Below, piece after piece: positions 4,787 through 26,700 of a stretch of DNA of 64,000 bases. Below the pieces are notes generated by a model. That model searched no databases and had not been told where the DNA came from. It saw only the letters and a list, made by a program, of their open reading frames with translations. The position numbers were made by a program, and so were the translations under genes. Numbering within the stretch: position 1 is the first letter of the stretch; every line of letters begins with the position of its first letter. This DNA is from Candidatus Limnocylindria bacterium (GTDB lineage: Bacteria; Chloroflexota; Limnocylindria; QHBO01), in assembly GCA_046262115.1 (NCBI GenBank), contig JBHENJ010000067.1, positions 2,211 through 66,210 of the forward strand, read 5' to 3'.

Positions 4787-4862
4787 TGGTGGAGATGAGG
4801 GGACTCGAACCCCTGACCCCCGCGATGCGAACGCGGTGCTCTCCCAGCTGAGCTACATCCCC
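4787..4862 (-). tRNA. tRNA-Ala (anticodon CGC), CCA encoded
   Basis: A 76-nt cloverleaf: GGGGATGTAGCTCAGCTGGGAGAGCACCGCGTTCGCATCGCGGGGGTCAGGGGTTCGAGTCCCCTCATCTCCACCA. It has the G3:U70 Ala identity pair, and the anticodon loop TTCGCAT gives anticodon CGC. Confidence 0.9.
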
Positions 4863-4897: not shown

Positions 4898-4913
4898 TCG
4901 AACATACGTTCTA
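4898..4913. promoter_or_regulatory. LexA (SOS) box of the Cheo type: TCGAACATACGTTCTA, a perfect GAAC-N4-GTTC palindrome
   Basis: Lies 3 nt upstream of the imuA' ATG and about 36 nt upstream of the tRNA-Ala 5' end on the other strand. A TATAAC/TATACT -10 hexamer sits at 4879-4884. Confidence 0.7.
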
Positions 4914-4915
4914 TT

Positions 4916-5749
4916 ATGCTCTTCCCTATGCTGGCCACTGCGCCCGTCGTTCGTCCGCTCCCGGAGGTGCTCGTCGAGCTGCGGTCGAAGGGGCTGCGGC
5001 GTGGCGTGACCGATGCCTCCGTTCCCCGCGAGCCGCCGATCTCCACCGGCTTTGCGGAGCTGGATGACGCCCTCCGCACGGACGGGCTCCCGCGCGGAAG
5101 CTGCACGCTCCTCGACGCGGATCGCGGCAGCGGCGCAACCACGCTCGCGCTGCACACGCTCGCCGCGGCGCAGCGCGGCGGTGGCCTGGCCGCGTACGTC
5201 GACGTCGCGGGCTCGTTCGATCCGGCGACCGCGGCGCGCCTCGGCGTCCGGCTCGAGTGGCTGCTGGTGGTGCGGCCGGCGACGATCGACGAGGCGGTCG
5301 AGATTTCCGGCTGGCTGGCGCGCAGCCGCCTGATCGACGCGTTCGTGCTGGATCTCGTCGGCGCGAGGCGCCCCGTCGTGGCCGCGGCGACGAGCGCCGC
5401 GGCGCGGAGCCTCGACCGGCTGGCGCAGGTACTGGCGAGGACCTCGGCGACGGGGATCCTGCTGACGGGTCGAGCAGACCGCGAGGCGGGATTCCAGGTG
5501 GCGGGGGTCCGGATCGCGCTTGAGCGGCGGGCATGGCTGGCCATCGGTCGCGACCTGGTCGGGCAGCGCGTCGCGGCGACCGTCACGCGCCACCGCTGGG
5601 CAGTGCCCGGCGGCCGCGCGGAGCTCGACCTGTGGTTTGCCGAGGGGCGGCGGATCGACCCGATGGTCGCGCGACGCGCCGAGACGCGCGAGCTGCCACC
5701 ATCGGTCGTCGAACGGACGGCCGATCGGGTGCGCGTTCTCACGGCATAG
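4916..5749 (+). CDS. imuA: ImuA' (RecA-fold SOS mutasome accessory protein)
   Basis: RecA-like core with a P-loop (GLPRGSCTLLDADRGSGATTLALHTL) and the sequence AYVDVAGSFDPATAARLGV. The tool ORF start at 4868 would include the LexA box and abut the tRNA, so I start at the ATG at 4916; an alternative ATG is at 4928. Its place in the cassette is LexA box, imuA', imuB. Confidence 0.7.
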   Translation: MLFPMLATAPVVRPLPEVLVELRSKGLRRGVTDASVPREPPISTGFAELDDALRTDGLPRGSCTLLDADRGSGATTLALHTLAAAQRGGGLAAYVDVAGSFDPATAARLGVRLEWLLVVRPATIDEAVEISGWLARSRLIDAFVLDLVGARRPVVAAATSAAARSLDRLAQVLARTSATGILLTGRADREAGFQVAGVRIALERRAWLAIGRDLVGQRVAATVTRHRWAVPGGRAELDLWFAEGRRIDPMVARRAETRELPPSVVERTADRVRVLTA

Positions 5750-11643: not shown

Positions 11644-11659
11644 TAGAACATTCGTTCTA
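11644..11659. promoter_or_regulatory. LexA (SOS) box TAGAACATTCGTTCTA (GAAC-N4-GTTC palindrome), 11 nt upstream of the dnaE2 start
   Basis: A perfect palindrome seen in the sequence. dnaE2 is a canonical LexA-regulon member. Confidence 0.75.
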
Positions 11660-11669
11660 ATCTGGGCCG

Positions 11670-14600
11670 ATGCGCTCGGCGCCATCGGTCAGTGAGTACG
11701 TCGAGCTCCACGCCCACAGCAACTTCAGCTTCCTGGACGGGGCGAGCCATCCCGAGGACCTCGTGGCGCAGGCGGCGCTGGTCGACATGCCGGCGCTGGC
11801 GGTCACCGACCACGCCGGCCTCTACGGAGCGGTTCGCCTCTGGAAGGCAGCCGGACAGACCGATACGGACGCTGCCCGCGCAGCCGGGCTCGCACCGGTA
11901 CGCCCGATCGTTGGGCTGGAGATCGCCGTGCCACGGGACGACGACGAGCTTGCCGCCGCACGACGGGGACGGAAGCTCAACGAGCGCGTCCGCGGGGAGC
12001 GGGCGAGCCGCGGCTGGCCCGGCGAGTTCCACGCCGGCCCGCAGCCCGGTGACCATCTCGTCCTGATTGCGCGCGACGCCGAGGGCTACAGCGCGCTGTC
12101 GCGCCTCGCGTCGCGCGGCCACCTCGCCGGTGAGAAGCAGTTCCCTGTCTTCGCGTCCGAGCTCGTCGCGGCCGCGCTCGACGATGCGCGCGGCCACCTG
12201 GTCGCGCTGTCGGGCTGCCGCAACGGCGAGGTCGCGCAACGCGTGCTCGCCGGCGACCGCGACGGGGCGCTCGACAGCGCGCGGCGGCTCGCGGCGCGCT
12301 TCCCGGACGGCGACTTCGCGATCGAGCTGTCGCACCACTGCCAGCCCGACGATGACTGGCTGGTGACCGAGCTGGCCGCGCTCGCCGACGAGGCGGCCCT
12401 GCCAACCGTGGTCACGAACGAGGTGCACTACGCCGAGCCCGGCGGCCATCGGCTCCACGACGTGCTGGTCTGCATCCGGCACGGCGCGACGCTCGACGAG
12501 AGCCACGAGCTGCGACTGCCGAACGGGGAGTATCGGCTCAAGAGCGGTCGTGAGCTCGTGGCGCTCGGCACGCGGCTGCCCGACGCGCGCGCGCGGCGGG
12601 CGTGGCGCGACGGGATGGCCTGGGCGGCCCGTATCGGCGGTGAGTGCCGGCTTGACCTGGGGTTCGAGCAGTATCGGTTTCCGGGCTTTCAGGTTCCTCC
12701 GGGTGAGACGCCGTTCAGCTACCTCTACCAGCTTGCCCACGACGGCTTACGGGAGCGTTACCGCCCGATTACCAAGCGCGCCCTCGAGCAGCTGACGCAT
12801 GAGCTGGACGTCATTGACCGGACCAACCTGGCCGAGTTCTTCCTGATCGTGTGGGACCTGATGGAGTTCGCGCGCCGCTCCGGGATCATCGGCCAGGGGC
12901 GCGGCAGCTCCGGCGACTCGATCGTGGCCTATGCGCTGGGGATCACCAAGGTCGACCCGATCGAGCACAAGCTGCTCTTCGAGCGCTTCATCAACGAGGC
13001 GCGCGCGCTCCCCGACATCGACATCGACTTCGACGTCAACCGGCGCGAGGAGGTGATCCAGTACGTGTACGACCGATACGGCGCGGACCACGCCGCCATG
13101 GTCTGCAACGTGGTGACGTACCGTGCCCGCTCGGCGGTGCGCGAGGTCGCCAAGGCGCTCGGCTTCCCGACCGAGGCGGTCGATCGGCTCGCGAAGTCGC
13201 TCGACACCCGCGACGCCGGCGACGTGGCGCGCGACCTCGCGCTCGACGGGTCGTTCGGTTGGCTGTTCGACGAGATCGGCGCCGACATGGCCTCGCACGC
13301 CGTCCCGCCGGGGCGTGACGGGCGTGGCAACTACGGCAATCGCGTCGGCGGGCTCGTGCAGCGGGTCGCCGACGACTCGTGGAACCCGCGGCCGCGGCCG
13401 GCGCTGCAGCCGGGCGCCGGGGGATCGGCTGCGCCGGCCGCGACACCGGCTCCGCCGCTCGCCGATGGGCGGCCGCGCTCGGAGAGCGGCTGGTATCCGG
13501 CAAAGCGACCGAGCGTCCTCGACGCATCGGTCACTTCGGTGAAGTACGAAGGTCAGGAGACGAAGCGGTACGCGTTGGTCGACGCGGGGCCCGCCGCGCC
13601 GCCGCTCGACGTTCCGGAGCCGCGGGACAACGGGACGCCCGGGCCGTCGGGCGCGCGGCCGAGCGTGGTCCGGATCGACGAGGAGAGCGGCATGCCGGTG
13701 CGCGTCCCGCGCACGACGGAGATCCGGCCGACGGCCGCTATCGACTCCGGCACGGCGTCCGCGCCGCGCAACCGGTGGCAGTGGCTGCTCCAGCTGTGCG
13801 GGGAGATCAACGGCTTCCCCCGGCACCTCGGCATCCACGTAGGCGGGATGCTCGTGACGCGGACGCCGCTCATCGACATCGTCCCGATCGAGCGGGCAAC
13901 CATGCCGCGGAGGGTCGTCACCCAGTACGACAAGGAGGACGTGGAGGCGCTCGGGCTGGTCAAGATCGACCTGCTCTCCCTGCGGACGTTGGGCGTGGTG
14001 AGCGAGGCGCTCGAGACGATCGAGCGGGACACGGGGCGCAGGATCGACCTCGACCGGCTCCCGCACGACGATCCTAAGGTCTTCGCCACGGTCCAGGCGG
14101 CCGATACGGTGGGCATGTTCCAGATCGAGAGCCGGGCGCAGATGCAGGCGCTCCCCAAGGCGCGCCCCGAGCGCTTCGAGGACCTCGTGGTCCAGGTCGC
14201 GATCATCCGCCCCGGGCCGATCCAGGGGAACGCGGTCCACCCCTACCTGCGGCGGCGGGCGGGCCTCGAGCCGGTGACCTACCTCCACCCAAGCCTCGAG
14301 CCGATCCTGGGCGACACGCTCGGCGTGATCCTCTACCAGGAGCAGGTGATGCAGATCGCCATCGCGGTGTGCGGCTACTCGGCGCTGGAGGCCGATACGT
14401 TCCGCAAGGCGATGGGCTCGCATCGGAGTCATCGCGAGATGGAGCGGGAGCACGTCCGATTTGTCGAAGGCGCCATCGCGACGGGGCTGACGCCCGATGA
14501 CGCCGAGGAGCTGTTCCGGCGTTGCGGGGCGTTCGCCGAGTTCGGGTTCGCCCGTGCGCACGCCGCCGCGTTCGCGAAGATCTGCTACGACACGGCGTGG

Positions 14601-15578
14601 CTCAAGCTCTACTACCCGGCGCACTACTGTGCGGGTGTCCTCAACAACCAGCCGATGGGCTTCTACTCCCCGGGAGTGGTCGTCAATGACGCCAAGCGGC
14701 ACGGGACGCGGGTGCTCCCCGTGGACGTCAACGCCTCGTGGTGGTCGACGCGCACGGAACGCGTGGACACGACCGGCGATGCGGCACGCGACTTCGGGGT
14801 CCGCCTCGGGCTCCACCAGGTGAAGGGCATCGGAGAGGAGGACAGGGAGCGCCTCGACGCGGAGCGGGCCGCGGGGCCGTACGCCGGGGTGCGGGAGTTC
14901 GTGGCACGCATGCGGGTGTCGGAGCGGGTCGTCGAGCGGCTGATCTCCGTGGGGGCCTTCGACTGGACGCGACGTGAACGCCGCGAGCTGTTGTGGGAGC
15001 TGCGCGGCACGTGGGCAGCTGCCGACCCGAAACGCCCGGCCCTGCCGCTCACCGAGGTGGAGCCGATCCCCCTTGGCCTTCCCCCCATGACCGCGACCGA
15101 TGAGGTCGCGGCCGACTATCGCGAGATGGGGCTGAGTTCACGAGCACATGCCGTGGAGCTGTATCGACCGAGGTTGCTACCTCGCGGAGTCGTGCCGGTG
15201 GGGGAGGCGGGTCGTTGGCGCGATCGGTACCGGATCAGGCTGGCAGGCCTCGCGGTGGCGGTGCAGCACCCAATGACGGCGAAGAACTTCGTCTTCATCG
15301 CTCTCGAGGACGAGACCGGCATGATCAACGTCACGCTCCGCCCGGACGTCTATCAGCGGCATCGGGGCGTCGTGCACCGCTCGCCGCTCATGGTCGTGGA
15401 GGGCATCCTCCAGGTGGAGGGCGCGGTGCTCAACGTGGTTGCGCAGCGCCTGATCCCGCTCGACGAGTTCGTCGCCTCGACCCGCGAGACTGACTCCCGG
15501 ACCGATCCGGATCGGCGCGGCTCGACGCCCCGCGCCGGAGACCTAGAGGTGCGCAAGCAGCAGCGGATGTTTCGGTAG
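11670..15578 (+). CDS. dnaE2: Error-prone DNA polymerase DnaE2 (ImuC), 1302 aa, with a low-complexity insertion of about 150-200 aa
   Basis: PHP domain start (YVELHAHSNFSFLDGAS), polymerase III alpha core (GIHVGGM, FDLLSLRTLGV) and a C-terminal OB region. An extra Pro/Gly/Ala-rich stretch (about nt 13370-13800) is absent from canonical DnaE2. Confidence 0.9.
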   Translation: MRSAPSVSEYVELHAHSNFSFLDGASHPEDLVAQAALVDMPALAVTDHAGLYGAVRLWKAAGQTDTDAARAAGLAPVRPIVGLEIAVPRDDDELAAARRGRKLNERVRGERASRGWPGEFHAGPQPGDHLVLIARDAEGYSALSRLASRGHLAGEKQFPVFASELVAAALDDARGHLVALSGCRNGEVAQRVLAGDRDGALDSARRLAARFPDGDFAIELSHHCQPDDDWLVTELAALADEAALPTVVTNEVHYAEPGGHRLHDVLVCIRHGATLDESHELRLPNGEYRLKSGRELVALGTRLPDARARRAWRDGMAWAARIGGECRLDLGFEQYRFPGFQVPPGETPFSYLYQLAHDGLRERYRPITKRALEQLTHELDVIDRTNLAEFFLIVWDLMEFARRSGIIGQGRGSSGDSIVAYALGITKVDPIEHKLLFERFINEARALPDIDIDFDVNRREEVIQYVYDRYGADHAAMVCNVVTYRARSAVREVAKALGFPTEAVDRLAKSLDTRDAGDVARDLALDGSFGWLFDEIGADMASHAVPPGRDGRGNYGNRVGGLVQRVADDSWNPRPRPALQPGAGGSAAPAATPAPPLADGRPRSESGWYPAKRPSVLDASVTSVKYEGQETKRYALVDAGPAAPPLDVPEPRDNGTPGPSGARPSVVRIDEESGMPVRVPRTTEIRPTAAIDSGTASAPRNRWQWLLQLCGEINGFPRHLGIHVGGMLVTRTPLIDIVPIERATMPRRVVTQYDKEDVEALGLVKIDLLSLRTLGVVSEALETIERDTGRRIDLDRLPHDDPKVFATVQAADTVGMFQIESRAQMQALPKARPERFEDLVVQVAIIRPGPIQGNAVHPYLRRRAGLEPVTYLHPSLEPILGDTLGVILYQEQVMQIAIAVCGYSALEADTFRKAMGSHRSHREMEREHVRFVEGAIATGLTPDDAEELFRRCGAFAEFGFARAHAAAFAKICYDTAWLKLYYPAHYCAGVLNNQPMGFYSPGVVVNDAKRHGTRVLPVDVNASWWSTRTERVDTTGDAARDFGVRLGLHQVKGIGEEDRERLDAERAAGPYAGVREFVARMRVSERVVERLISVGAFDWTRRERRELLWELRGTWAAADPKRPALPLTEVEPIPLGLPPMTATDEVAADYREMGLSSRAHAVELYRPRLLPRGVVPVGEAGRWRDRYRIRLAGLAVAVQHPMTAKNFVFIALEDETGMINVTLRPDVYQRHRGVVHRSPLMVVEGILQVEGAVLNVVAQRLIPLDEFVASTRETDSRTDPDRRGSTPRAGDLEVRKQQRMFR

Positions 15579-22140: not shown

Positions 22141-22881
22141 ATGCTAGGTCCCATGGACGAGGCCCGGCCGAAGGCGACGCCCGAGCAGATCGCGACGTTC
22201 CTGACCACCGAGCACTACAGCCTCCAGTCGATCCGCACCGGGACGATCGCGGACTCGAACGGCCGCACCGCGCTCTTCCTCGGCACGCTTTCGGGCTCAC
22301 TGGTGGCCCTGGCGCTGGTCGGCCAGGTCTCGCAGCTCGGCGAGCCGATGTTCGTGCTTGCGATGGTCGTCTTCCCGACGGTCCTGTTCATCGGCCTGGT
22401 CACATACGTCCGCGTCCTCCAGGTGGCCCTGGAGGACATCCTCTGCATGCTCGGCATCGCGAGGATCCGGCGTTACTACCAGGAGATGGCGCCTCACACT
22501 CGGCCGTACTTCGTCCTGGGCGCGTACGACGACCTGGACGGGATCTGGGAGAACTACGTCTCCACGATCCCCGGCGGGCTCCAGATCTTCATGACGACGG
22601 CCGGCATGGTGGCGGTGATCGACAGCGTCCTGGCGGGCGTCACCGCCGCGCTGTTGCTTAGCCGCATCGGGATGGGCATGACCGACGTCCTGCTTCCGGG
22701 CATCGCGGCGTTCTTCATCGTCCTGGTGGCGCTCCAGGCCCACCAGGCGAGGTGCTGGCGCCGCCTGCGCCGCGGCTGGCGCTCACGCTTCCCCACGCCT
22801 GCGGTCGCCAGCGGTCCCGTGGAGACCGGCGCGGGTACGGGCGCCGCCGCCGGCGAGGGCGTGACCGCGACGCGGCGCTAG
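22141..22881 (+). CDS. Integral membrane protein, function unknown
   Basis: Multiple TM helices. Its start is 3 nt after the upstream stop. Confidence 0.45.
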   Translation: MLGPMDEARPKATPEQIATFLTTEHYSLQSIRTGTIADSNGRTALFLGTLSGSLVALALVGQVSQLGEPMFVLAMVVFPTVLFIGLVTYVRVLQVALEDILCMLGIARIRRYYQEMAPHTRPYFVLGAYDDLDGIWENYVSTIPGGLQIFMTTAGMVAVIDSVLAGVTAALLLSRIGMGMTDVLLPGIAAFFIVLVALQAHQARCWRRLRRGWRSRFPTPAVASGPVETGAGTGAAAGEGVTATRR

Positions 22882-23774
22882 AGCGCCAGCACGAACTGGT
22901 CCGGCTCCGGTGGCGGCGCGAGCGGCGTGGCTCTTCGGTCGGCGATCTCGAACCGTGCGGCAAGCTCCCGCACGCGCTTGACGGTCGGCGCGGTCTCCCC
23001 GTGCGGCAGATAAGAGCGCCGTGCGTACAGGCGCTCGTATCGGTCCAGCTCCTGCGGCCAGTCGCGCGCCAGGTTCTCGACGAAGTGCTCCCGCGTGCCG
23101 GGAGTCAGGTACAGGAGCTTGCCCCACACGTTCGTGGCGCCGGCCGCGCGTGCCGCTCGGACGACCTCTGCGAGCTGGTCGGGGCGGTCGGAGAGGCCCG
23201 GCAGGATCGGAGCGATCCCGACGCCCGCACGGATGCCCGCGTCGACGAGTGTCTTGAGCGCGCGCAGCCGCTGGCGGGGCGGCGGGGTGCCGGGCTCGGT
23301 GCGCCGCCATACCTCCGCGTCGAGGGTCGGGATCGAGAAGGTGACCGATACCTCCGCCCGCCGGGCCGCCTCGCTCAGGACGTCGAGGTCGCGCACGATC
23401 ATGGGCGAGCGGGTGATAATGCTGAGCGGGTTCCGTGCGTCGGACAGCACCTCTAGGCACGCGCGCGTCAGCCGGTATCGGCCCTCGGCCGGCTGGTACG
23501 GGTCGGTCGCCGCGCCGATGGCGACCATCTCGCGGCGCCATGACCTGCGCGCCAGCTCTTTGCGGAGGACGTCCGCGACGTTGATCTTCACGCGGATGCT
23601 CGTCCCGTACCGGTCGTCAGACGGTCGGCCGGCGCGAAGCTCGAACCCGCGGACGTAACAGAACGTGCACCGATGCGCGCAGCCCATGTATGGGTTGAGC
23701 GACCAGCGGAACGGCATGCTGGTCACCTTGTTGAGCGCGCTCCGGCAGGGCTCCTCGCGGTACTCGATCTTCAT
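22878..23774 (-). CDS. Radical-SAM DNA-repair-photolyase-like protein (SplB / Rv2578c family)
   Basis: The CAHRCTFCY radical-SAM cluster motif is close to the N-terminus (start at MKIEYREEP), and the fold is SplB-like. A LexA box lies 17 nt upstream. Confidence 0.7.
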   Translation of the reverse strand: MKIEYREEPCRSALNKVTSMPFRWSLNPYMGCAHRCTFCYVRGFELRAGRPSDDRYGTSIRVKINVADVLRKELARRSWRREMVAIGAATDPYQPAEGRYRLTRACLEVLSDARNPLSIITRSPMIVRDLDVLSEAARRAEVSVTFSIPTLDAEVWRRTEPGTPPPRQRLRALKTLVDAGIRAGVGIAPILPGLSDRPDQLAEVVRAARAAGATNVWGKLLYLTPGTREHFVENLARDWPQELDRYERLYARRSYLPHGETAPTVKRVRELAARFEIADRRATPLAPPPEPDQFVLAL

Positions 23775-23790
23775 CGGAATCCAGCCAGTA

Positions 23791-23806
23791 TAGAACGTCA
23801 GTTCTA
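23791..23806. promoter_or_regulatory. LexA (SOS) box TAGAACGTCAGTTCTA (GAAC-N4-GTTC palindrome) in the divergent region between the radical-SAM gene and the RNHCP gene
   Basis: A perfect palindrome seen in the sequence. Confidence 0.7.
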
Positions 23807-24018
23807 GTTCTCCAAGGTTGACGCGGAAAGGGCGCGGTACCGATACTCCCACAGTTCCGACGACGCCGATCGCGGCGTCGTGGCTACCGCAGCGGAGGAG
23901 TGTCATGACGACGGTTGTGTCGATCGAGCTCGTGTCACGCCCCCGCGGAGTCAGCGGCTAGCACTCGCTGACCCACTGCCGTCCCGCGTGGACGGCGCTC
24001 CCGCTCCGGGTCGCCGGC

Positions 24019-24411
24019 GTGACATCGCCCGCGACCCTTCTTCTTGTTCGGGAGCCTTCACCAGTGCCCCAGACCGATACGTTCCGGTGCACGCATTGTG
24101 GCGATCGCGTTCGCCGCACTGCGCACGGGACGCGACACCGAAACCACTGCCCACGCTGCCTCTGGAGTCGCCACGTCGACGAGCGTCCGGGCGACCGCGC
24201 CGCCGCCTGCCTCGGCGACATGGAGCCGATCGCGATCTCCGTGCGGGGCGAGGAATGGATCCTCATCCACCGCTGCCGGGCGTGCGGGACGTTGCGTGCG
24301 AACCGCAGCGCCGGCGACGACGACGCGGCGCAGCTGCTCGCCATCGCAGCGCGTCCGCTGGCGCACCCGCCCTTCCCGCTTGAGAAGCCGGGCCGCCTTC
24401 CGCGCGTCTGA
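24019..24411 (+). CDS. RNHCP-domain zinc-ribbon protein
   Basis: FRCTHCGDRVRRTAHGTRHRNHCPRCLWSRHVD and the later HRCRACG form two CxxC pairs and the RNHCP motif. The start could instead be an internal GTG at about 24067. Confidence 0.55.
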   Translation: MTSPATLLLVREPSPVPQTDTFRCTHCGDRVRRTAHGTRHRNHCPRCLWSRHVDERPGDRAAACLGDMEPIAISVRGEEWILIHRCRACGTLRANRSAGDDDAAQLLAIAARPLAHPPFPLEKPGRLPRV

Positions 24412-24442
24412 GTAACGATGCCGTTCGCGCTGGGCTGTCGCG

Positions 24443-25705
24443 TCAAGCCGACAGGGGTCCCATGGCTGCCGTGACGGCGGCCGCGAGGCGGCTCTCGGTC
24501 GGCCAGATCACGCGCGTCGCTCCCACGAACGACCGGTACGCCGCCAGCGCGCCGGCGAAGGCCGCGATGAACCCGGGCTCGGCGAGCGGCTCGAAGTTCG
24601 GCTCGAACGACAGGCCGAGGATGCGCAGCGTCTCGGGCGCCGCCCGCTCGACACGCGGCTCGATCCGTCCGACCAGCCGGTCGCCGAACAGGATCGGCAG
24701 CACGTAGTAGCCCCAGCGGCGCTTCGGCGCCGGCACGTAGACCTCCCAGAGATAGTCGAAGCCGAACAGCTCGCGCAAATGACCTCGGTCCCAGACGAGC
24801 GGATCCAGGGGCGCCAGGAACGAGACGCCGGGATGACGACGCGTGCCCGCGCGTCGCGCCGCTTCGAGCACGGCTCGCTCCTCCCCGAGGGCGTGCCGGA
24901 TCCCGGGCAGTCCGTCGACCTCCACGCGGATCCGCGTTCCGTCCTCGACGAGACCGGCGATGAGTGCCGTGCGCTCCACCTTCGTGCCGGTGGCGTACAG
25001 CACCTCGCCCAGCGGCCGCGGCCCCACGAGACCGACGGCGCGGAATCGCGACAGAAGCCGGTGACGTTGCGACTCCTCGCGGGGCACGCGGCGCGACAAC
25101 ACGTCGCCGGGGAAGAGCCGCTCCACGAGGTCGTAGTAGCGTCGGTTGCCGTTCCGGCGAGAGATTCCCAGCCGCCCGGCGGTGAAGAGCGCCTCCAGCA
25201 CGGCACGTGCGACGCGGGTGGGGGCCCACCACCAGTCGATCGACGCGGTGTACTCGGTGAACGCGGCTGTCGAGAGTGGGCCCTCGCTCCGGATACGCTC
25301 GAGGATCGCCGTCGCCACGTCCCGCTGCTCCGCGAGGATATTCGCGTCGTGGTACGCGCTGCTGCGGTCCCACGCGATCCGGTAGTAGGGCAGTTCCTCC
25401 AGCGGCAGGATGTTGAGCGACTTGTTGTAGGCCTCGAACAGGCGGCGTTTTTCCGGTGGCCCGTACAGCCATCGGTCGCACCACTCGTGGCGGTAGTCGC
25501 GGATCCGTGCATGCAGCACGAGGTCGTGGTTGCGCGCGCCCGGGACCTCGAGCGGGTCGAATTGCAGGAGCCCCAACCGTTCGACCACGCGAAGGACCGA
25601 TTCCGGCTTCGCCGGCAGCGACCGCGGCGGGTCGAGCAGGTGGCGCCGGACGAGGAAGCGTCGCGCCTGCTGCGGCGTCACGGTCAGGACGGAGGCATCG
25701 GTCAT
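24443..25705 (-). CDS. YcaQ/AlkZ-family (HTH_42, winged-helix) DNA glycosylase candidate
   Basis: A protein of about 420 aa with the QFD (Q-phi-D) catalytic motif in LGLLQFDPLEV near the N-terminus, as in YcaQ-like interstrand-crosslink glycosylases. The overall pattern is of the DUF1006/YcaQ type. Confidence 0.6.
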   Translation of the reverse strand: MTDASVLTVTPQQARRFLVRRHLLDPPRSLPAKPESVLRVVERLGLLQFDPLEVPGARNHDLVLHARIRDYRHEWCDRWLYGPPEKRRLFEAYNKSLNILPLEELPYYRIAWDRSSAYHDANILAEQRDVATAILERIRSEGPLSTAAFTEYTASIDWWWAPTRVARAVLEALFTAGRLGISRRNGNRRYYDLVERLFPGDVLSRRVPREESQRHRLLSRFRAVGLVGPRPLGEVLYATGTKVERTALIAGLVEDGTRIRVEVDGLPGIRHALGEERAVLEAARRAGTRRHPGVSFLAPLDPLVWDRGHLRELFGFDYLWEVYVPAPKRRWGYYVLPILFGDRLVGRIEPRVERAAPETLRILGLSFEPNFEPLAEPGFIAAFAGALAAYRSFVGATRVIWPTESRLAAAVTAAMGPLSA

Positions 25706-25782
25706 GCGGGCGCGATTATCGCGGCGGAGAATGGCCGCACTCGCCGCATCGGAGAACCGCCGTGTCGCTCACAACCACGGAG

Positions 25783-26427
25783 ATGACGCCCGAGCTCCAG
25801 GACTACCTCGTCTCGATCAGCGTCCGCGACCACCCGGTCCTGGTCAGGCTGCGCGAGGAGACGGCGCGCCTGTCGGAGGCCAACATGCAGATCGGTCCCG
25901 AGCAGGGCGCGTTCATGCAGGTGCTGGTCGAGATGCTCGGCGCGCGGCGCTGTCTCGAGCTTGGCGTATTCACCGGCTACAGCTCGCTCGTCGTCGCGCT
26001 GGCGATGCCGTCCGACGGCCGCATCACGGCCTGCGACGTGAGCGAGGAGTGGACCTCCATCGCACGACGCTATTGGGCGGAGGCCGGCGTCGCGGACAGG
26101 ATCGACCTGAGGCTGGCGCCGGCGACGGAGACGCTCGACGCGCTGCTTCGCGACGGAGCGGCGGGCACGTACGACTTCGCGTTCATCGACGCGGACAAGT
26201 CCGAGTACGACACGTACTACGAGCGGACGATCGAGCTGCTGCGGCCGGGCGGGCTGATGGCCATCGACAACGTCTTCTGGGGCGGTGAGGTCGTGGACCA
26301 GACGAGGCACGACGCCGACCTGGACGCGATCCGCGCCCTCAATGCCAGGATCGTCACGGACGAGCGCGTGACAATGTGCGTCGTGCCAATCGCCGATGGC
26401 CTGACGCTTGCGCGGAAACGCGGGTAG
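25783..26427 (+). CDS. Class I SAM-dependent O-methyltransferase (caffeoyl-CoA OMT family 3)
   Basis: VLELGVFTGYSSL...FIDADK...D are the OMT motifs. The ATG at 25783 is in the tool frame, and an alternative GTG lies at 25763. Confidence 0.7.
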   Translation: MTPELQDYLVSISVRDHPVLVRLREETARLSEANMQIGPEQGAFMQVLVEMLGARRCLELGVFTGYSSLVVALAMPSDGRITACDVSEEWTSIARRYWAEAGVADRIDLRLAPATETLDALLRDGAAGTYDFAFIDADKSEYDTYYERTIELLRPGGLMAIDNVFWGGEVVDQTRHDADLDAIRALNARIVTDERVTMCVVPIADGLTLARKRG

Positions 26428-26486
26428 CGGAGGCGGGCTGGCGGCCGTCCCTATACTCACGGCCGAAGGGACCGAACCCGCCCCGC

Positions 26487-26700
26487 ATGGTCATCGTCAT
26501 CGCGGCCGTGGCGCTTCTCGTCATCCGCCTGTCGTTGACGCTCATCCCCATCGGGCCGCTCGACGACTTCCCGCTCCGATACGTCCACCCGACGTTCCTG
26601 AACTATGGGTACGCGGTCGACCGTCAGCTTGGCTACATGTGCCTCCCCGCCGCGCCGATCCTCTCATCGTCGGCTCACTCTTTCCGGGTATCTGACAGGC
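26487..26700 (+). CDS. Hypothetical small membrane protein (MVIVIAAVALLVIRLSLTLIPIG...); the end point is uncertain
   Basis: It has an N-terminal TM helix, but the tool ORF continues into a low-complexity tail that is probably not real. It is similar to the next small ORF. Confidence 0.25.

Follow-up and report, generated by a model that had tools for sequence, protein, structure and literature searches.

A candidate LexA operator upstream of a SplB-like radical-SAM gene in a Limnocylindria contig, and the RNHCP gene inserted beside it

The stretch of DNA examined here, 64,000 nucleotides (nt) from a Candidatus Limnocylindria bacterium (Chloroflexota; contig JBHENJ010000067.1, positions 2,211 to 66,210; hereafter the window), carries a perfect palindrome, TAGAACGTCAGTTCTA, next to a gene for a SplB-like radical S-adenosylmethionine (SAM) enzyme. 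On the other side of the palindrome a gene for an RNHCP-domain protein is read in the opposite direction, followed by genes for an AlkZ-like DNA glycosylase and an O-methyltransferase. A first-pass annotation of this DNA took the palindrome for a LexA box and the four genes for a coherent module of the SOS response, with RNHCP as a candidate new member of the regulon. Our analysis leads to a smaller unit: probably the SplB-like gene stands by itself under a LexA operator, and the adjacency of RNHCP is accidental.

The exact core of the box, GAAC-N4-GTTC (23793-23804), is present three times in the window, where 0.49 copies are expected and one of 100 shuffles reaches three; sites with one mismatch are about as common as chance predicts (22, with 19.2 expected). 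Each of the three exact boxes precedes a canonical SOS gene (imuA'-like, dnaE2 and SplB-like) by no more than 20 nt. The edge of the box beside the radical-SAM gene is 16 nt from the ATG at 23774, which bears out the first-pass description of a perfect LexA box just upstream of a gene encoding the motif CAHRCTFCY. A promoter scan returned two sites where 0.0 were expected. One of them faces the radical-SAM gene, and there, with the elements assigned by consensus only, the box occupies the spacer between -35 and -10 and overlaps the -10 hexamer TATACT by 2 nt; 12 nt separate this hexamer from the ATG. The three boxes follow one design (4898-4930, 11644-11672 and 23772-23806), the 3' GTTC being joined directly to a TAnnnT hexamer (TATTAT, TAATCT and TATACT) that is 10, 6 and 12 nt from the ATG of the imuA'-like, dnaE2 and radical-SAM genes, respectively. 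This fusion, combined with the short gap to the start codon, implies SOS transcripts that are leaderless or have a very short leader.

The arrangement is widely kept. A scan of metagenome contigs with an alignment of radical-SAM homologues gave 80 loci (L081-L160) at 69%-77% protein identity, and 67 of these have an exact GAAC-N4-GTTC within 60 nt upstream of the start codon, with only three more exact boxes in the remaining 392 kilobases (kb). A TAnnnT hexamer adjoins the box in all 67, and its gap to the start codon is most commonly 6-7 nt, a leaderless geometry, or ~13 nt. Box spacers and flanks vary among the loci. The four closest relatives of the window (L161-L164), whose gene context differs from that of the metagenome clade, all have an equivalent box. 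Retention of both position and sequence in 67/80 loci and 4/4 relatives supports the proposal that the box is the operator of the radical-SAM gene, and on sequence grounds we regard it as a credible LexA operator. The expected count does allow a 12-nt core to turn up in 64 kb by chance; even so, a palindrome with no regulatory role is extremely improbable, since its position relative to the start codon and the -10 hexamer is retained in these homologues and relatives and the imuA'-like and dnaE2 genes each have one of the remaining exact boxes of the window before them.

Whether the radical-SAM/RNHCP pairing recurs across genomes had been set beforehand as a check on the four-gene module, and the pairing is not conserved. 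A scan of a genome collection anchored on RNHCP gave 80 loci (L001-L080) from Streptomyces, other Actinomycetota, Chloroflexota, Planctomycetota, Armatimonadota and Bacillota. In none of the 80 does a radical-SAM gene adjoin RNHCP, and in none is there an exact box within 500 nt upstream of it; boxes with one mismatch are not enriched within 300 nt upstream (0.25 per kb, background 0.36 per kb). On these counts RNHCP is not supported as a candidate member of the SOS regulon. Conversely, RNHCP is found at 0/61 of the radical-SAM-anchored metagenome loci that have at least 700 nt of upstream sequence, and it is absent from L161-L164. The closest co-occurrence in all 160 anchored loci is in L080, where a radical-SAM homologue of 32% identity lies 4.6 kb from RNHCP. 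No neighbour of RNHCP is conserved in its 80 loci beyond small clades. One box, 666 nt upstream of RNHCP in L001, was considered and rejected: it falls within a hydrolase coding sequence and hence is not regulatory.

In a bidirectional SOS module RNHCP would be a genuine, hitherto overlooked member of the LexA regulon and would work alongside the products of the radical-SAM, YcaQ-like and methyltransferase genes. Such a module would account for the divergent placement of RNHCP and the radical-SAM gene around the box, for a promoter-like site that faces RNHCP close to it, and for the presence of further SOS genes in the window. We nevertheless consider it very improbable, given the lack of pairing in the anchored loci and the lack of box enrichment upstream of RNHCP genes, to which can be added that RNHCP is missing at this position in relatives whose enzyme is 86%-94% identical, that the AlkZ-like and methyltransferase genes have no nearby box, and that the box is 257 nt from the RNHCP start, outside the candidate promoter.

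The close relatives indicate how RNHCP came to lie where it does. Their radical-SAM proteins are 94% (L164), 90% (L162 and L163) and 86% (L161) identical to that of the window, and all four have, on one strand, the AlkZ-like gene, 0-16 nt, the box and the radical-SAM gene, with RNHCP absent. Since the AlkZ-like gene ends so close to the box, AlkZ-like read-through would run into the operator. In L164 the stop codon TAG of the AlkZ-like gene is itself the first three bases of the box (273-310; compare L161 1940-1985 and L162 455-500). Nucleotide homology between the window and these relatives extends up to 23806-23813 and is found again from 24500-24517, within the 3' end of the AlkZ-like gene; the C-terminus of the AlkZ-like protein in the window has diverged from that of the relatives, and its length is equal. 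With homology broken off at the edge of the box and RNHCP lacking in the relatives, we conclude that RNHCP and its spacer are a lineage-specific insertion of 636 nt that abuts the box (Table 1).

The insertion shows no mobile-element marks; no terminal repeats or target-site duplications were found around it. For its 257-nt spacer, no second copy exists in the window and none of the compared loci shows nucleotide or translated similarity; GC content at third codon positions reveals no clear coding frame in it. Part of the spacer (23850-24070, plus strand) can form about five GC-rich hairpins, a fold more stable than that of shuffled sequences (z -3.8; the window as a whole is 70% GC), and nothing ties this stable fold to a function. 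A search of 22700-26600 against Rfam gave nothing relevant at E-values (E) up to 1, and in 20 RNHCP loci the gathering thresholds admitted only one tRNA gene, downstream of RNHCP in L050.

An insertion of this kind could have recruited RNHCP by accident, placing it so near the operator that LexA now modulates or damps its expression in one lineage. The exact abutment on the box would fit, as would the sigma-70-like site facing RNHCP, the only one on that side: its -35 element TTGACG starts 12 nt past the edge of the box, and the site and the box do not overlap. Yet the centre of the operator would then lie upstream of the putative transcription start by ~55 nt, an atypical position for repression, the arrangement occurs in one genome only, and the promoter was called by consensus match only. 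Hence recruitment appears unlikely, and if true it would offer a natural snapshot of a regulon gaining a member through insertion beside an existing operator.

The order in the relatives also raises the idea of an ancestral pair, in which the AlkZ-like glycosylase and the SplB-like enzyme were co-transcribed or acted together in crosslink or alkylation repair until RNHCP interrupted them. In L161, L162 and L164 the two genes do follow each other on one strand with 28-41 nt between them, and in L164 stop codon and box are shared. However, this adjacency is confined to very close relatives, in which synteny would be expected anyway; the AlkZ-like gene is found at 0/49 of the more distant radical-SAM-anchored metagenome loci with at least 1300 nt of upstream sequence (4 kb covered on either side); and the box, being downstream of the AlkZ-like gene, exerts no control over it. 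We judge such a pair quite unlikely.

The RNHCP gene itself is real (PF12647), as the first-pass annotation held; its distance from the box is not the ~210 nt given there. That figure is close to the 212 nt measured from the earliest possible start, GTG 24019, but the most likely start is GTG 24064, which is preceded by GGGAG 9 nt upstream, lies 257 nt from the box, and fits both the 115-aa (amino acid) length in public annotation and the alignment of homologues. An annotated protein from a Candidatus Limnocylindria metagenome-assembled genome (MAG; P0001) is also 115 aa long and 99% identical. In the alignment the motif R26-N27-H28-C29-P30 is invariant, and the invariant residues include C29, C32, H37, D39, C49, H69, C71, C74 and an NRxAGDD segment, with C9 and C12 nearly so; ~10 Cys and His residues are thus invariant or nearly invariant. 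Identity across phyla (Streptomyces, Chloroflexota, Planctomycetota, Armatimonadota and Bacillota) is 55%-70%. RNHCP is, to judge from this conservation, a strongly constrained orphan zinc protein: it has no match in PHROG or PADLOC and no known fold match, and we found no mention of the domain in the literature. Nothing supports a link between RNHCP and DNA damage.

The radical-SAM protein is 298 aa long, which is both its annotated length in a Candidatus Limnocylindria MAG (P0121, 100% identical) and the dominant length among homologues. A 342-aa reading frame from ATG 23906 was rejected as spurious, given that homologues have 298 aa and that nucleotide homology to the relatives begins at the box. 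All 20 homologues compared keep CAHRCTFCY (C32-x3-C36-x2-C39) unchanged. In NCBIfam the protein comes closest to the Rv2578c family, with 282 bits (cutoff 430), followed by the PA0069 family with 212 bits (cutoff 360); for the spore photoproduct lyase family TIGR04070 it reaches 26 bits, the cutoff being 400. A sequence search of the PDB puts spore photoproduct lyase (SPL) at the top, at a level that is not significant (E 0.26). For an AlphaFold2 model, the six best PDB matches are all SPL, with E from 7e-8 to 6e-7 and template-modelling (TM) scores of ~0.6, and lipoyl synthase ranks behind them, its E poorer by two to three orders of magnitude and its TM score ~0.45. Of the catalytic SPL residues Cys140, Tyr96 and Tyr98 (G. 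thermodenitrificans numbering, with an inferred offset), a weak alignment of hidden Markov models to SPL covers the two tyrosines, with invariant Y40 opposite Tyr98 and invariant F38 opposite Tyr96. The label "SplB-like" thus suits the predicted fold, and by the family test the protein is not an SP lyase. The radical-SAM protein (22881-23774, minus strand) also has a strong match to phrog_13321, a family of phage proteins with no assigned function (E 3e-54), so SplB-like enzymes of its type are also phage-borne.

On the far side of RNHCP the remaining two genes are as first described. The AlkZ-like gene and RNHCP converge, their stop codons separated by 31 nt, and the AlkZ-like gene encodes a protein whose best PDB match is 9ZD6, AlkX of Thermobifida fusca (E 4e-30), with its QFD aligned to the catalytic QID. 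The Q-phi-D motif defines the YcaQ-like (YQL) subfamily, as opposed to the (Q/H)-phi-Q of AlkZ-like self-resistance enzymes (PMC9040887), and by this sequence test the protein is of the YcaQ-like type, a predicted glycosylase. The SAM-dependent O-methyltransferase diverges from it, a pairing that also occurs in L161. The 80-nt control region that the two genes share contains no LexA-like box, even with one mismatch allowed, and together with the lack of any conserved neighbourhood this speaks against a coherent four-gene SOS module. The order methyltransferase, AlkZ-like gene, radical-SAM gene and S58-peptidase gene is common to the window and L161-L163; at so short an evolutionary distance such synteny stems from common descent and is no evidence of functional coupling. 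Where the window has a 246-aa membrane-protein gene (22141-22881), L161 has an erythromycin-esterase gene.

Table 1. Coordinates of the features discussed, in positions of the 64-kb window
Feature	Position	Strand	Basis or remark
Predicted LexA operator (SOS box) TAGAACGTCAGTTCTA	23791-23806	.	16-nt perfect palindrome
Predicted radical-SAM promoter	23787-23814	-	Consensus scan: -10 TATACT 23787-23792, -35-like TGGAGA 23809-23814
SplB-like (COG1533) radical-SAM protein, 298 aa	22878-23774	-	PF04055, 64 bits; CxxxCxxC at C32/C36/C39
Lineage-specific insertion, 636 nt	23807-24442	.	257-nt spacer, RNHCP gene and 31 nt; 0-16 nt in relatives
Promoter-like site TTGACG-18-GATACT facing RNHCP	23818-23847	+	Consensus match only
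RNHCP-domain zinc-binding protein, 115 aa	24064-24411	+	PF12647, 123.5 bits (gathering score 24)
YcaQ-like (YQL) member of the AlkZ-like/HTH_42 DNA glycosylase family, 420 aa, QFD motif	24443-25705	-	PF06224, 155.9 bits
Class I SAM-dependent O-methyltransferase (Methyltransf_3)	25784-26427 (ATG 25784 or GTG 25762)	+	PF01596, 237 bits
Exact box	4898-4913		Before a RecA-like (imuA'-type) gene, then an IMS-family gene
Exact box	11644-11659		Before a dnaE2-type polymerase gene

Two further observations concern the other boxed genes of the window. A tRNA-Ala (cgc) gene (4787-4862, minus strand) is close to the imuA'-like gene, its end lying 36 nt from the LexA box there. The dnaE2-type open reading frame (11670-15578) is 1302 aa long, and the Pfam domain DNA_pol3_alpha matches it in two stretches; a gap without Pfam assignment, at about residues 516-772 before the finger domain, suggests an insertion of ~200 aa, and no intein domain was reported at E up to 1e-4.

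Several points weigh against the SplB-like gene as a single-gene SOS unit, or narrow what can be claimed for it. At 13/80 radical-SAM loci the box is missing, mostly with the hexamer retained; not every member of the family is thus under LexA control. In 42-47 of the 80 metagenome loci the radical-SAM gene has the same neighbours, upstream a CBS/CorC-type gene (minus strand) and downstream a gene for a LuxR-type response regulator, and the loci are therefore largely one syntenic soil clade and not independent samples; clustering of the neighbours in all 80 returned this clade synteny only, and no repair partner emerged. No lexA gene was found in the 64-kb window, a result that is uninformative. 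Both NCBIfam scores of the radical-SAM protein are below the equivalog cutoff, which by sequence places it in the broader COG1533 group and not as a certified Rv2578c or PA0069 equivalog. The AlphaFold2 model is of moderate confidence, with a predicted local distance difference test score (pLDDT) of 72 that falls below 50 around the cluster loop. Lastly, given a promoter-like site 12 nt from the box, LexA may have some influence on RNHCP in the window genome.

Taken together, the evidence suggests the following course of events for the SplB-like gene. The operator, of the Firmicutes/Actinobacteria type (GAAC-N4-GTTC), would sit between -35 and -10, its 3' half-site fused to the -10 element (GTTC-TATACT), and we infer that LexA bound there blocks RNA polymerase. 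DNA damage would trigger RecA-stimulated self-cleavage of LexA and so free the promoter, from which a transcript with a very short leader would be made; the geometry in many relatives points to a leaderless transcript. By analogy to spore photoproduct lyase, the enzyme presumably acts on a DNA lesion, which it would reverse or process by means of a 5'-deoxyadenosyl radical derived from SAM at a [4Fe-4S] cluster. RNHCP is a recent arrival, brought by the 636-nt insertion between the upstream AlkZ-like gene and the operator, and the YcaQ-like glycosylase and O-methyltransferase are ordinary syntenic neighbours with a box-free control region of their own.

SOS control of a SplB-like gene is already documented in other bacteria (PMC4951493, PMC3381160, PMC9380542). 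If the operator functions as predicted, the window extends the documented core SOS set, lexA and splB together with imuA-imuB-dnaE2, to a Limnocylindria genome within the Chloroflexota, here in the form of imuA'-like, dnaE2 and splB-like genes. The compact promoter design, with a LexA half-site fused to the -10 element and often a leaderless geometry, is common to many soil-metagenome homologues. RNHCP can be taken off the list of possible new SOS genes, and the locus is a clean example of a recent insertion that mimics a divergent operon. It gives no new handle on the substrate of SOS-controlled SplB-like enzymes.

Among known systems, the AlkZ-like protein is closest to E. coli YcaQ and T. 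fusca AlkX, interstrand-crosslink glycosylases of the YQL (HTH_42) type, with which it shares PF06224, the match to 9ZD6 and the Q-phi-D motif (PMC9040887). The middle residue of its motif is Phe, however, and not aliphatic, its glycosylase activity is predicted from sequence, and its gene lies outside the control of the SOS box and outside the conserved unit. Spore photoproduct lyase (SplB, PDB 4FHC) is the top match of the radical-SAM model (E 1e-7, TM score 0.62/0.55 over ~300 columns), and the two proteins have CxxxCxxC-Y and EPGT segments in common. They differ in that identity is only 15%, that the window protein falls far short of the TIGR04070 cutoff and of significance at the sequence level, and that the window organism is not known to form spores.

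The closer parallels are regulatory. In M. tuberculosis, Rv2578c has a LexA peak (peak 20) in chromatin immunoprecipitation sequencing (ChIP-seq) and is induced in a RecA-dependent manner (PMC3381160), and in S. venezuelae, vnz_31145 is a LexA ChIP-seq target with 20-fold induction by mitomycin C (PMC9380542). Rv2578c (NF038135) is like the window protein in being a COG1533-type radical-SAM protein, its family giving the best NCBIfam match, and in having an SOS box of the GAAC-N4-GTTC type in the promoter region. The window protein remains under the equivalog cutoff of that family and lacks an N-terminal extension of ~38 residues (its match begins at profile position 39); the divergent neighbour is dhaA there and RNHCP here, and the host belongs to the Actinobacteria there and to the Chloroflexota (Limnocylindria) here.

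The splB genes of Verrucomicrobia and Proteobacteria (PA0069 family, NF033668) offer the broadest comparison. In Verrucomicrobia, splB/COG1533 belongs to the core LexA regulon with lexA and imuA-imuB-dnaE2, with support from electrophoretic mobility shift assays, and LexA-regulated orthologues are also reported from Actinobacteria and from Alpha-, Beta- and Gammaproteobacteria (PMC4951493). PA0069 is counted among the 15 SOS genes of P. aeruginosa in the passage of a preprint that cites Cirz 2006 for this (bioRxiv 10.1101/2022.03.14.484287). The window protein differs from the PA0069 family in scoring below its cutoff, and the LexA motifs differ as well, being TGTTC-N4-GAACA in Verrucomicrobia and CTGT-N8-ACAG in Gammaproteobacteria as against GAAC-N4-GTTC in the window; variations of the latter are given as the motif of Chloroflexi in the passage of PMC4951493 that cites Fernandez de Henestrosa 2002. 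These systems and the window alike have a radical-SAM gene that stands alone, placed directly under a LexA operator, together with an imuA-imuB-dnaE2 cassette controlled by LexA in the same part of the genome, LexA control being predicted in our case (PMC4951493).

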